The notes under the pieces are model-generated. The model was not told the DNA's origin, did not search any database, and worked only from the letters and a program-made list of their open reading frames with translations. From the NCBI RefSeq assembly GCF_003334305.1, contig NZ_QOWS01000015.1: DNA of 64,000 nucleotides; one strand, written 5' to 3'. Origin of the DNA: Escherichia coli (GTDB lineage Bacteria > Pseudomonadota > Gammaproteobacteria > Enterobacterales > Enterobacteriaceae). Each line of letters opens with the position of its first letter. Position 1 is the stretch's first letter. Made by a program: the position numbers and the translations under genes. Below are positions 398 through 6,547 of this stretch, piece by piece.

Positions 398-1363
398 CTA
401 CAAATCCAACACCAGGCGTTTACCCTTCGCACGCGAACAACAGATCAACATACTTTGCTGGCTGGCACGCTCTTCATCGCTAAAATACTGATCCCGATGG
501 TCAGCTTCACCTTCCAGTATTGCTGTTTCGCAGGTTCCGCATACCCCTTCACGACATAAACATTCCACTTTCGCGGCTTTATTATTTTCAATAACCTGCA
601 AAATAGTCATCTCTTCCGGCACCACAAACTCTTTTCCGGAACGGGCAAGCACCAGGGTAAAGGCATCGCCGGTTTTGTCTTCGATAGCAAATTGCTCAAA
701 GTGCAGCGTATCGGCGACGATGTCCAGACGCGCAGCTTCACTTCTTACCGCTTCATTTAGCGCCTCGGGACCACAGGTATAAACGTGTGTGCCAGGTTCG
801 ATATCCGCCAATAATCGCGCTAATTCCAGTCGTGTTCCGGTTGATGAGTGATGCAAGTGAACTTTCTCAGCCTGCGGATGCTGGACTAGCTCATCACGAA
901 ATGCGCAACTTTCTGGATTTCGCGAGCAGTAATGTAGCTGCCAGTCGACGTCGCTGTGTTGCAGCTCTGCCATGTGCGACAGGAAAGGGGTGATACCAAT
1001 ACCGCCCGCGATAAACAGATGCTTTCTGGCTGAGGGAATTAGCGCAAACAGGTTATTAGGCGTTGAAATCGTTAACCGATCGCCCACTTTTACCTGCTGA
1101 TGCAAAAAGCGGGAACCGCCGCGCGAGTTTTCCTCCAGCCGAACGGCAATCTGATAACAAGAGGTGTCATGCGGCGAACTCAGTAGTGAATACGCATTGC
1201 TGTACTGGTTATCACCATCGCTCATCTGCACAATGATGTGACTTCCTCCGGTGAACGCAGGCAGCGGTTTGCCATCGGTTGCCACCAGCGTGAAGCGTTT
1301 CACCTGTTCGGTAAGCGGTTCCACCTGACTCACCTGTACTTCAAACATTTGATAGTCTGACAT
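398..1363 (-). CDS. yeaX: Ferredoxin-NAD(P) reductase-type oxidoreductase with C-terminal 2Fe-2S ferredoxin domain (YeaX/CntB-like reductase partner of the Rieske oxygenase)
   Basis: 321-aa ORF; C-terminal C-x4-C-x2-C...C ferredoxin motif; flavin/NAD-binding GGIGITP motif; ATG at 1361-1363 complement. Confidence 0.9.
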   Translation of the reverse strand: MSDYQMFEVQVSQVEPLTEQVKRFTLVATDGKPLPAFTGGSHIIVQMSDGDNQYSNAYSLLSSPHDTSCYQIAVRLEENSRGGSRFLHQQVKVGDRLTISTPNNLFALIPSARKHLFIAGGIGITPFLSHMAELQHSDVDWQLHYCSRNPESCAFRDELVQHPQAEKVHLHHSSTGTRLELARLLADIEPGTHVYTCGPEALNEAVRSEAARLDIVADTLHFEQFAIEDKTGDAFTLVLARSGKEFVVPEEMTILQVIENNKAAKVECLCREGVCGTCETAILEGEADHRDQYFSDEERASQQSMLICCSRAKGKRLVLDL

Positions 1364-1418
1364 TGCTGTACTCCATCAAAAATCAGCCCAGCGGCGGAAA
1401 ATACCGCCGCCGATGTCA

Positions 1419-2543
1419 TTAGTCCTTAAACACCTGCGCCAGCAGATTATGGAAATGGGCGATACCATGTTCGGAAATGCCACTACCGCTACTGTCGGCC
1501 ATGATGCGCCCCTGACCACGATAGCCACGCGATTTCAGCCCTTTCTGTACGCTTTCAACCAGACGTAAATCTTCCGGACGGAACACATCGCGATACCACT
1601 CAATCAGCGATTTTTGCTCGTCGGTTAACTCTTCATTGGTGAAGTAAATATCGTAGTTTTGCAGGGTAGTTTCAGAATCCACCGGGAATTCATAAATGAC
1701 CGTCATCATCCCTTTGATCGGGGTGACGTTCAGCATCGTGCACGGCCACAGCCAGAAACCGTGGAATGCCGCATCCGTACCCTCTTCAAATTTAAACGAC
1801 TGTTCGGACGGTTTGGCGAAACCGTATTGCAGCGTCCAGTTACCGTGCATGGTGTGCCAGTAACGATCAACCTGTACGGAGTCGGAGAAACCTGGATGCG
1901 CCGGACCACAGTGATAGCACTCGAGATAGTTATCGACAATGTTCTTCCAGTTGGCAGGCGTGCGGGTGGTAAAGCGGGCCGCCAGTTTCAGATCGTGGAC
2001 TTCCGGGCAGGCTTCCAGCACTTTCGCGCCCAGACCGGGTAACTGATCTTCTACGCTGGTGGCGTTGGGGTCCATGTTGATGAAGACGAATCCGGCATAT
2101 TCTTCCAGACGCACCGGAACCAGTTGCGCTTTGTCGCTATCGAAATTGGCGACGTTTTCGCAGTTACGTGCATGGGCCAGATTGCCATCGAGTTTGAATG
2201 CCCATGCGTGATACGGGCAGGTAATCACATTTTTTGCTTTTCCTTCACCGCTCAACAACTGATGACCACGGTGCGGACACACGTTATAGAACGCGCGCAA
2301 AACCTTATCACGACCGCGTACCAGCACGATGCTTTCGCCAATGATCTCACGCGTCACATAATCATTGGCATTCGCCAGTTCGCTGCTGTGAGCGACGCAA
2401 ATCCAGCTTTTGGCGAAGACGTTCTCTTTTTCGTGTTCAAATGCGTTCTGATCGGTATAAAAACGGGCAGGAATGGTCCACGCCTCTTGCGGGTTAGCGC
2501 AAAAATTTTCGGGTAGTACAAAGTCAGGGCTCAGATTGCTCAT
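1419..2543 (-). CDS. yeaW: Rieske [2Fe-2S] oxygenase alpha subunit (YeaW/CntA-like carnitine monooxygenase)
   Basis: Rieske motifs CPHRGH and CPYHAW in the translation; start moved to internal ATG at 2541-2543 (MSNLSPDF...) giving about 374 aa. Confidence 0.9.
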   Translation of the reverse strand: MSNLSPDFVLPENFCANPQEAWTIPARFYTDQNAFEHEKENVFAKSWICVAHSSELANANDYVTREIIGESIVLVRGRDKVLRAFYNVCPHRGHQLLSGEGKAKNVITCPYHAWAFKLDGNLAHARNCENVANFDSDKAQLVPVRLEEYAGFVFINMDPNATSVEDQLPGLGAKVLEACPEVHDLKLAARFTTRTPANWKNIVDNYLECYHCGPAHPGFSDSVQVDRYWHTMHGNWTLQYGFAKPSEQSFKFEEGTDAAFHGFWLWPCTMLNVTPIKGMMTVIYEFPVDSETTLQNYDIYFTNEELTDEQKSLIEWYRDVFRPEDLRLVESVQKGLKSRGYRGQGRIMADSSGSGISEHGIAHFHNLLAQVFKD

Positions 2544-2574
2544 AGGGATACCTTTATCGTTAGGATGATGGCGC

Positions 2575-4415: not shown

Positions 4416-4435
4416 TCAAATAAACTGGTTTGACC

Positions 4436-5521
4436 TTAACGCAAAATAATTTTGCAAATCGCGTCGGCAACCTGTGGCGTGGTGGCATTGCCTTTCATAT
4501 CAGGTGTTTTCGGCCCGTGAGCAATCACTTCTTCAATTGCTGCCAGAATACCGTTATGCGCTTGCTGGAAACGCTCATCGCCATTGCCGAGAAAATCGAG
4601 CATCATTGCACCGGCCCAAATCGTGGCGATAGGGTTAGCAATGTTTTTCCCGTAGATATCCGGCGCGGAACCGTGGACTGGCTCGAAGAGCGACGGGAAA
4701 GTGCGTTCCGGATTCAGGTTGGCGGATGGGGCAATGCCAATGGTGCCGGTGCAGGCCGGGCCAAGATCGGAAAGGATATCGCCAAATAAATTGGACGCCA
4801 CCACCACATCGAAGCGTTCCGGCTGCATCACAAAACGCGCGCAGAGAATATCAATATGCTGCTTGTCCCAGCGGATCTCCGGGTAATTCTCGGCCATTGC
4901 TTCCACTCGCTCATCCCAGTACGGCATGCTGATGGCTAAACCGTTTGATTTAGTGGCAGAAGTTAGCGTCTTACGTGGGCGGCTTTGCGCAAGTTCGAAG
5001 GCATAACGCAAAATGCGATCGACACCACGACGCGTAAATACCGATTCCTGAATGACGACTTCATGCTCTGTACCTTCATTCACTCTACCGCCGAGCGAGG
5101 AATATTCGCCTTCGGTGTTTTCCCTGACCACGTAAAAATCGATGTCGCCAGGCTGTTTTCCCGCCAGCGGGCAGGGAACGCCAGGAAAGAGACGAACCGG
5201 GCGCAGGTTGACGTACTGGTCGAATTCACGACGAAATTTCAGCAGCGAACCCCACAACGAAATATGGTCAGGAACGGTGTCCGGCCAGCCGACGGCACCA
5301 AAATAGATGGCGTCGAAACGGCTAAGTTGCTCATGCCAGTCGTCCGGCATCATTTTACCGTGATGGCTGTAATACTCGCAGCTCGCCCACTCCATTTGCT
5401 CAAAACTCAAGGCGAAGCCCCAGCGCTCAGCGGCAGCCTGTAACACGCGAATCCCTTCAGGAAGGACTTCTTTGCCAATCCCGTCTCCCGGGATCGCAGC
5501 AATACGCATCGTTTTCATCAT
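4436..5521 (-). CDS. dmlA: D-malate/tartrate dehydrogenase (decarboxylating), isocitrate/isopropylmalate dehydrogenase family
   Basis: 361-aa ORF, full-length family member; divergent from the LysR regulator gene. Confidence 0.9.
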   Translation of the reverse strand: MMKTMRIAAIPGDGIGKEVLPEGIRVLQAAAERWGFALSFEQMEWASCEYYSHHGKMMPDDWHEQLSRFDAIYFGAVGWPDTVPDHISLWGSLLKFRREFDQYVNLRPVRLFPGVPCPLAGKQPGDIDFYVVRENTEGEYSSLGGRVNEGTEHEVVIQESVFTRRGVDRILRYAFELAQSRPRKTLTSATKSNGLAISMPYWDERVEAMAENYPEIRWDKQHIDILCARFVMQPERFDVVVASNLFGDILSDLGPACTGTIGIAPSANLNPERTFPSLFEPVHGSAPDIYGKNIANPIATIWAGAMMLDFLGNGDERFQQAHNGILAAIEEVIAHGPKTPDMKGNATTPQVADAICKIILR

Positions 5522-5623
5522 TGGGTTCTCACTTCCTGACCATCAAAATTGACAACATCACCATCCTATAATTGACTGAAAAGGAATTAATCCCCGTAAC
5601 TGGTGAAACATAAAACACGAATC

Positions 5624-6547
5624 ATGAATAATTTACCGCTGCTGAATGATTTGCGCGTCTTTATGCTGGTGGCTCGTCGGGCTGGTTTTGCCGCCGTGGC
5701 GGAAGAACTGGGCGTTTCACCGGCGTTCGTCAGCAAGCGCATCGCCTTGCTGGAGCAAACGCTAAACGTGGTGTTGTTACACCGCACCACCCGCCGCGTC
5801 ACCATTACCGAAGAAGGAGAGCGGATTTATGAATGGGCGCAGCGGATTTTGCAGGATGTCGGTCAGATGATGGACGAACTTTCTGACGTGCGTCAGGTGC
5901 CGCAGGGGATGCTGCGTATTATCAGCAGCTTTGGTTTTGGACGACAGGTGGTGGCTCCGGCGTTATCAGCGCTGGCTAAGGCGTATCCGCAACTGGAATT
6001 ACGTTTTGATGTGGAAGACCGGTTGGTCGATTTGGTCAATGAAGGTGTTGATCTCGATATTCGCATTGGCGATGACATCGCCCCTAATTTAATCGCCCGC
6101 AAACTGGCGACTAATTACCGCATTCTCTGCGCGTCGCCGGAATTTATTGCGCAACATGGCGCGCCGAAACATTTAACCGATCTTTCCGCATTGCCGTGCC
6201 TGGTCATTAAAGAGCGCGATCATCCTTTTGGTGTCTGGCAATTACGCAATAAAGAAGGCCACCATGCGATTAAAGTCACCGGCCCACTGTCGTCTAATCA
6301 TGGAGAAATTGTCCATCAGTGGTGTCTCGATGGGCAGGGGATTGCTCTGCGCTCCTGGTGGGATGTTAGCGAAAACATTGCCAGTGGTCATTTAGTGCAA
6401 GTGCTACCGGAATATTACCAGCCAGCGAACGTCTGGGCCGTTTATGTTTCAAGGCTGGCGACGTCAGCGAAAGTGCGGATAACGGTAGAATTTTTACGCC
6501 AGTATTTTGCCGAGCACTACCCGAATTTTTCACTGGAGCATGCCTGA
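5624..6547 (+). CDS. dmlR: LysR-type transcriptional regulator of dmlA
   Basis: N-terminal helix-turn-helix of LysR type; start set at internal ATG (MNNLPLLNDL...) giving about 307 aa. Confidence 0.85.
   Translation: MNNLPLLNDLRVFMLVARRAGFAAVAEELGVSPAFVSKRIALLEQTLNVVLLHRTTRRVTITEEGERIYEWAQRILQDVGQMMDELSDVRQVPQGMLRIISSFGFGRQVVAPALSALAKAYPQLELRFDVEDRLVDLVNEGVDLDIRIGDDIAPNLIARKLATNYRILCASPEFIAQHGAPKHLTDLSALPCLVIKERDHPFGVWQLRNKEGHHAIKVTGPLSSNHGEIVHQWCLDGQGIALRSWWDVSENIASGHLVQVLPEYYQPANVWAVYVSRLATSAKVRITVEFLRQYFAEHYPNFSLEHA

Follow-up and report, generated by a model that had tools for sequence, protein, structure and literature searches.

The yeaVWX-dmlAR locus of Escherichia coli is a reduced variant of the CntAB carnitine degradation cluster

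Introduction

Does the D-malate dehydrogenase gene dmlA, with its divergent regulator gene dmlR, stand by coincidence beside the carnitine monooxygenase and transporter genes yeaX, yeaW and yeaV of Escherichia coli, or do the five genes serve one pathway? The question is raised by positions 398-6547 of a 64-kb stretch of E. coli DNA (contig NZ_QOWS01000015.1, hereafter the window), a segment that spans the region from the yeaX stop to the dmlR stop and has rnd and leuE as flanking genes. Our analysis indicates that the five genes probably make up a single conserved module for catabolism, namely the CntAB carnitine degradation cluster in a version without msadh.

E. coli cntA/yeaW dominates the carnitine monooxygenase genes found in human gut surveys, where it is a marker of the potential to form trimethylamine and hence trimethylamine N-oxide (TMAO), and both its expression and its contribution to trimethylamine are disputed. 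The yeaVWX-dmlAR locus and the membership of dmlA and dmlR in the pathway are already known. A preliminary description of this DNA had likewise called the biology already described, and indeed the biochemistry of YeaWX and the five-gene cluster have both been published (PMC9508527, PMC11353897). What we add, a survey of alleles and a candidate regulator box, is modest, and makes the dispute over E. coli cntA in trimethylamine production testable.

Gene content and order of the locus

The window is a piece of the E. coli chromosome. We compared its bases 1-7400 with the 5,426 complete E. coli genomes in RefSeq; all 5,426 matched some part of them, and several, such as strain A7, were 100% identical. 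The following gene names come from the RefSeq annotation of A7, which agrees with the list of open reading frames (ORFs).

398-1363, minus strand: yeaX (cntB), carnitine monooxygenase reductase, 321 amino acids, identified by RefSeq name, Pfam and a match to structure 2pia
1419-2543, minus strand: yeaW (cntA), Rieske oxygenase subunit of carnitine monooxygenase, 374 amino acids, identified by a match to structure 6y8j
2575-4185, minus strand: yeaV, BCCT-family transporter in its intact form of 536 amino acids, identified by NF007412
4436-5521, minus strand: dmlA, D-malate / tartrate / 3-isopropylmalate decarboxylating dehydrogenase, 361 amino acids, identified by TIGR02089
5624-6547, plus strand, divergent: dmlR, LysR-type regulator of 307 amino acids, orthologue of Acinetobacter baumannii CarR, identified by RefSeq name

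The dmlR start at 5624 is that of RefSeq, and the longest ORF begins at a GTG at 5603. For yeaW, a mechanical ORF list offered a frame of 414 amino acids from TTG 2663 that overlaps yeaV; we replaced it with the 374-amino-acid frame from ATG 2543, which has a ribosome-binding site upstream. The preliminary description had identified the same genes, with yeaW, yeaX and yeaV co-oriented and dmlR divergent, and both the reading frames and the annotation of the identical genome bear this out.

In A. baumannii, cleavage of carnitine yields trimethylamine and malic semialdehyde, the latter is oxidized to D-malate (not L-malate), and a decarboxylating D-malate dehydrogenase then forms pyruvate (Piskol 2024, PMC11353897). 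The same study reported that five A. baumannii genes (carR, mdh and bcct together with cntA and cntB) have orthologues in E. coli, which lacks hyd and msadh, at identities to Acinetobacter of 45, 72, 56, 72 and 52% (PMC11353897). Our own comparison of dmlR, dmlA, yeaV, yeaW and yeaX with the locus of A. nosocomialis gave 45, 72, 54, 72 and 52%, matching the published figures. A synteny scan with one genome per species returned 80 loci, and the order dmlR' dmlA yeaV (hyd) yeaW (msadh) yeaX, with dmlR divergent, was found in 65 of the 80 species. These conserved loci span Escherichia, Citrobacter, Yersinia, Xenorhabdus, Serratia, Pseudomonas, Acinetobacter and the Neisseriaceae; in Burkholderia the same genes occur in a rearranged order. 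Since D-malate is a downstream product of carnitine cleavage and the gene order has been kept so widely, dmlA and dmlR are part of the carnitine pathway, and their adjacency to yeaVWX is functional, not coincidental. The preliminary description had presented dmlA and dmlR as an adjoining D-malate regulon. As to location it was right, but the two genes are not mere neighbours, being orthologues of carR and mdh within the carnitine cluster (PMC11353897).

The E. coli genes share their order, their orientation and the oxygenase chemistry with the A. baumannii cluster carR-mdh-bcct-hyd-cntA-msadh-cntB. Unlike that cluster, however, the E. coli locus lacks both hyd, which encodes an acylcarnitine hydrolase, and msadh. 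Because neither gene lies between yeaV and yeaX, nor an orthologue of either elsewhere in the window, the locus is a reduced variant and not a full member of the A. baumannii-type catabolic cluster. The two also differ between the dehydrogenase and the transporter gene, where E. coli has a terminator and 250 bp and Acinetobacter only about 50 bp, a gap too short for a second promoter. The closest relatives outside the genus are the clusters dmlR-dmlA-bcct-cntA-msadh-cntB of Citrobacter and Pseudomonas, and YeaW is 91-94% identical in the Citrobacter clade (Citrobacter and close relatives). Three features described below are common to this clade and E. coli: the blocks of the control region, the terminator, and the hairpin that precedes cntB. 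The Citrobacter and Pseudomonas clusters keep msadh between cntA and cntB, whereas Escherichia is cleanly without it.

The carnitine monooxygenase YeaWX

YeaW contains Pfam Rieske (E=1.6e-23) and Ring_hydroxyl_A domains and matches the crystal structure of A. baumannii CntA (6y8j) with E=9e-197. Its Rieske ligands C89-P-H91 and C109-P-Y-H112 (CXH-X17-CXXH) align with C86/H88/C106/H109 of CntA, its iron ligands H211/H216/D325 with H208/H213/D323, its bridging E208 with E205 and its Y206 with Y203. In CntA these residues have been assigned to the Rieske cluster, to the His-His-Asp triad, to the bridge (Glu205) and to the binding of the quaternary ammonium group of the substrate by a cation-pi contact (Tyr203) (PMC7948474). 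Across 14 diverse homologues, the Rieske and iron ligands, the bridging Glu and the Tyr were unchanged. The RefSeq protein, WP_000067822.1, is common to K-12 MG1655, BL21(DE3), A7 and SE11.

In YeaX, Pfam recognizes FAD_binding_6 (residues 9-103), NAD_binding_1 (117-207) and a C-terminal Fer2 domain (240-313), and the sequence carries the plant-type ferredoxin motif C-REGV-C-GT-C (CX4CX2C...C). The whole protein can be aligned with phthalate dioxygenase reductase (structure 2pia, E=5.8e-56); it thus has the domain composition of a phthalate-dioxygenase-reductase-type (class IA) reductase, as CntB/YeaX should. The domain content that the preliminary description had proposed (a Rieske protein, a flavin reductase with a plant-type ferredoxin domain, and a BCCT transporter) is therefore the one that Pfam and NCBIfam detect.

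The reaction itself has been demonstrated. Purified E. coli YeaW/YeaX, amplified from DH10B, is highly active and cleaves L-carnitine to trimethylamine and malic semialdehyde with O2 and NADH; the preparation contained FMN, the plant-type cluster, the Rieske cluster and mononuclear iron, and its subunits can be exchanged with those of CntA/CntB in working chimeras (PMC9508527). The carnitine-to-trimethylamine chemistry that the preliminary description had ascribed to the pair is accordingly on record (PMC9508527, PMC7948474), and the CntA residues are conserved.

For YeaW, YeaX and DmlR no NCBIfam model scored above its cut-off. The models for the glycine betaine monooxygenase GbcAB were the best NCBIfam match for YeaW and were among the matches for YeaX, but their scores (154 against a cut-off of 670, and 71 against 500) led us to reject this identity. 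Like YeaWX, GbcAB and the other quaternary-amine Rieske oxygenases of group V have two components, an oxygenase and a reductase with a plant-type ferredoxin domain; GbcAB differs from YeaWX in substrate and products. An NADH oxidoreductase model also figured among the best matches below the cut-off, and we took the identities from PDB, Pfam and RefSeq names instead.

Transporter, dehydrogenase and regulator

YeaV matches the YeaV BCCT equivalog NF007412 over residues 1-536 of 536 with 1033 bits (cut-off 647), and the RefSeq protein at the locus is WP_000987525.1 in both A7 and SE11, which carry the intact allele. Its 54% identity to the Acinetobacter gene product, a carnitine/choline transporter (PMC6562126), together with the gene context, suggests that YeaV transports carnitine. 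DmlA scores 565 bits against the tartrate dehydrogenase equivalog TIGR02089 (cut-off 470), matches structure 3flk with E=1e-194 and, as given above, is 72% identical to the Acinetobacter D-malate dehydrogenase (MDH) gene product. The NCBIfam model closest to DmlR is TtdR, at 359 bits under a cut-off of 398; the identity to the Acinetobacter regulator is the 45% already quoted.

The missing msadh gene

Among the scanned loci, 54 have msadh between cntA and cntB, most of those of Citrobacter included. Another 25 are without it; the gene is missing in each of the four Escherichia species and in part of the Citrobacter, Xenorhabdus, Serratia, Yersinia and Pseudomonas. The comparison of E. coli with E. 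albertii, both without msadh, gave ratios of nonsynonymous to synonymous substitution rates (dN/dS) of 0.012-0.078 for all five genes, which argues that the msadh-less cluster is kept by selection.

A reasonable substitute for oxidizing malic semialdehyde would be GabD, judging from its sequence. E. coli GabD shares 62% identity with the Acinetobacter MSA-DH and 64-67% with the enzymes encoded within the clusters of Citrobacter, Pseudomonas and Xenorhabdus, nearly as much as these enzymes share among themselves (62-74%). It retains R166, E256, R284, C290 and S447, and the substrate-binding residues of MSA-DH are all present in it. We also considered the ORF at 50447-51808 (plus strand), the only aldehyde dehydrogenase match in the window, and rejected it as a substitute for msadh, since it is 30% identical and not an orthologue; from its map position it is presumably astD.

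Regulatory sites and transcript structure

The non-coding parts of the locus contain the following elements.

4325-4337, minus strand: candidate DmlR box upstream of yeaV, TTCGTGTTTTATG, a shared 13-mer
5621-5609, minus strand: candidate DmlR box upstream of dmlA, TTCGTGTTTTATG, inside the dmlR-dmlA control region
5522-5623: dmlR-dmlA divergent control region, with the box TTCGTGTTTTATG, AGTCAATTATAGGAT (5577-5563) and GTCAATT (5553-5547)
4279-4307, minus strand: putative yeaV promoter, -35 TTGTTT (4307-4302), 17-nt spacer, -10 AATAAT (4284-4279)
4388-4417, minus strand: dmlA intrinsic terminator, a 10-bp stem (4417-4395) and a T7 run, 18 nt past the dmlA stop
1378-1413, minus strand: GC-rich hairpin (1413-1388), 6-nt gap and U5 run (1382-1378), upstream of the yeaX Shine-Dalgarno GGAG (1374-1371)

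Within the window the 13-mer TTCGTGTTTTATG has exactly two copies, each on the minus strand, with 0.09 matches expected by chance, and no further copy was found in the 64 kb when one mismatch was allowed. Among 2000 shuffles, 2 gave a shared word of at least 13 letters between the gaps upstream of dmlA and yeaV. Escherichia, Citrobacter, Yersinia and Serratia have retained the core GTGTTTTAT at each of the two sites. The dmlA-side box of Xenorhabdus is GTAAATTAT, and TAAATTnTGT is present in the yeaV gap of several species; in several Xenorhabdus the core changes in parallel to (G/T)TAAATT. Because the 13-mer is common to both upstream regions it suggests that DmlR acts at both dmlA and yeaV, and it is plausible that DmlR controls yeaVWX as well as dmlA.

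In 27 Enterobacterales loci the dmlR-dmlA control region is 100-104 bp long and has invariant blocks. Two of these, AGTCAATTATAGGAT and GTCAATT (5547-5577), form a direct repeat of GTCAATT with a spacing of about 22 bp, and probably hold core promoters or a second regulator site. Upstream of yeaV, the TTGTTT and AATAAT hexamers are conserved in the Escherichia and Citrobacter-clade alignment and lie downstream of the yeaV box. We tentatively place there a weak yeaV promoter, of a type that depends on activation.

The intrinsic terminator that the preliminary description had noted between dmlA and yeaV is well defined: besides its stem and T7 run, it has a fold energy of -16.9 kcal/mol (z = -3.6), and its hairpin shows no change among 14 Escherichia and Citrobacter-clade loci, in which the next 25 nt vary freely. 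It marks separate transcripts and not a functional separation of the two units. Since DmlR probably activates a yeaVWX promoter too, the terminator would divide two transcripts of one regulon.

Within the yeaVWX unit, a hairpin of 8-11 bp followed by a U-run is predicted before yeaX/cntB in 14 of 14 Escherichia and Citrobacter-clade loci, with stems that differ in sequence. It stands 3′ of msadh in the loci that have this gene, and directly 3′ of yeaW in E. coli. The element at 1378-1413 looks like a terminator-like or stabilizing structure inside the operon, and may lower the expression of the reductase relative to the oxygenase or stabilize the upstream mRNA.

Alleles of the locus in E. coli

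The genes yeaVWX are present in 4,378 of the 5,426 complete genomes. A segment of 225 bp within this region is missing from many of them.

4058-4282: 225-bp segment, present in the window; deleted in K-12 MG1655 (by alignment) and in BL21(DE3) (by annotation)

This segment is intact in 2,931 of the 5,426 genomes (54%), and by subtraction some 1,447 genomes (about 27%) have yeaVWX without it. The deletion takes away the start codon of yeaV, the ribosome-binding site and the first 43 codons (128 bp) as well as 97 bp upstream, and in K-12 it cuts through the AATAAT of the putative -10 element. For both K-12 and BL21(DE3), the RefSeq annotation of yeaV is that of a pseudogene "missing N-terminus", and BL21(DE3) shows the same gene spacing. 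When K-12 or BL21(DE3) is compared with A7 and SE11, which have the intact allele, the genes dmlA, dmlR and yeaX are near-identical; the window and SE11, as A7, carry the intact YeaV of 536 amino acids.

A further 1,044 genomes (about 19%) are without all five genes. They have one scar in common, in which only fragments of dmlA (156 bp) and dmlR (168 bp) remain between rnd and leuE, as in strain AREA_487 (L003 3911-4452) and the ST131 strains EC958 and JJ1886. That the scar is common to all of them points to a single ancestral deletion.

Two other disruptions were seen. The representative genome of Escherichia whittamii (L005) has an internal yeaV deletion of about 83 bp, equivalent to 3547-3629 of the window, with yeaW and yeaX intact, which is a second, independent disruption of the transporter gene. 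In the E. coli database protein P0014 (472 amino acids), an isocitrate/isopropylmalate dehydrogenase domain is joined to YeaW's Rieske and catalytic domains (99% identity); it suggests that in some isolates a deletion has fused dmlA to yeaW and removed yeaV.

There are thus three alleles in E. coli, intact, yeaV 5′-deleted and fully deleted, and the usual laboratory strains carry a defective one. For this reason, surveys of gene presence and experiments with laboratory strains may misjudge wild strains. In a table of one review, E. coli K12 is given as a positive for trimethylamine from carnitine; we set this entry aside, as the cited paper used K12 DNA only as a standard for quantitative PCR.

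Function of the locus

In the pathway that we propose, YeaV would import L-carnitine or a related quaternary amine. NADH supplies electrons, which YeaX conducts by way of FMN and its plant-type 2Fe-2S cluster to YeaW's Rieske cluster. YeaW, with O2, hydroxylates C4 of carnitine and so releases trimethylamine and malic semialdehyde. An aldehyde dehydrogenase encoded elsewhere, with GabD the obvious candidate, would oxidize the semialdehyde to D-malate, and DmlA would convert D-malate to pyruvate and CO2. DmlR activates dmlA and probably also a second, weak promoter before yeaVWX.

Several observations weigh against this pathway or its regulation. An msadh orthologue is absent from the 64-kb window. 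The consensus scan detected no sigma-70 site in the dmlA-yeaV gap, where the putative yeaV promoter scores 8/12, under the threshold. The box matches in Xenorhabdus are not significant one by one, and a search for a shared box in the Pseudomonas and Neisseriaceae loci gave nothing above chance. E. coli K12, B and BL21 did not grow on carnitine, and an extract of BL21 was without monooxygenase activity (PMC11353897). Transcripts of cntA are rare in human gut metatranscriptomes (bioRxiv 10.1101/2021.01.25.428109). The growth and activity results, however, do not test the intact allele, since K-12 and BL21(DE3) carry the yeaV 5′ deletion (among B strains, BL21(DE3) was the one checked). Our full-text literature search found no paper linking this deletion with the carnitine negatives of K12, B and BL21.

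We considered three other explanations of the locus. It is improbable that it consists of two unrelated adjoining units, a quaternary-amine oxygenase/transporter operon and an independent D-malate regulon. The strong, conserved terminator and the 250-bp gap between dmlA and yeaV would fit such an arrangement, and DmlR and DmlA were reportedly characterized by Lukas et al. in 2010 for growth on D-malate, with no reference to carnitine. Yet divergent dmlR and dmlA lie directly upstream of the transporter gene in 65 of 80 species, across Enterobacterales, Pseudomonas, Acinetobacter and Neisseriaceae, the corresponding gap in Acinetobacter is the short one of about 50 bp, and some 1,044 genomes lack all five genes together and have one scar in common. 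Moreover, D-malate is a demonstrated product of the pathway (PMC11353897). Less improbable, and still unlikely, is a non-catabolic role, in which the msadh-less cluster would merely trim the intracellular pool of carnitine as a compatible solute and feed no carbon to metabolism. Piskol 2024 suggested such a role for clusters without msadh or mdh, and the failure of the tested strains to grow on carnitine agrees with it (PMC11353897), as does the absence of msadh from all Escherichia loci and from 25 scanned loci in all. Against it, the msadh-less Escherichia lineage has kept dmlA and dmlR linked, with strong purifying selection on both, and this would be difficult to account for were D-malate never formed; no substrate-binding residue of MSA-DH is missing from GabD; and the growth tests are uninformative, since K-12 and BL21(DE3) lack a complete yeaV.

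The least likely explanation, and a very improbable one, is that the locus is a silent, decaying remnant that lies idle in the source strain. The loss of msadh, the genomes without the cluster (about 19%) or with a truncated yeaV (about 27%), the separate yeaV deletion of E. whittamii, the dmlA-yeaW fusion P0014 and the low expression in the gut are all in keeping with decay. In the window, however, all five reading frames are intact and full length against their family profiles, dN/dS is 0.01-0.08, conservation extends to the regulatory blocks, the terminator and the hairpin preceding yeaX, and the purified enzyme is highly active, as noted above.

Returning to the single catabolic module, we can extend it to a more specific proposal, which we regard as possible but doubtful. 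In E. coli with the intact allele, a second promoter driven by DmlR would make the five genes one regulon responsive to D-malate or carnitine, and carnitine would be converted to trimethylamine and pyruvate via GabD or another unlinked aldehyde dehydrogenase. The published negatives would then stem from K-12 and B strains in which the start and the promoter of yeaV are deleted. If this is true, the potential to form trimethylamine would be set by the allele and not by the presence of cntA.

A neighbouring insertion element

Beyond the locus, an IS200/IS605-family element lies at 8052-9699 between yoaG and yeaQ, with tnpA at 8052-8483 on the minus strand and tnpB/InsQ at 8491-9699 on the plus strand. 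It is found in strains A7 and SE11 and not in BL21(DE3) or AREA_487.

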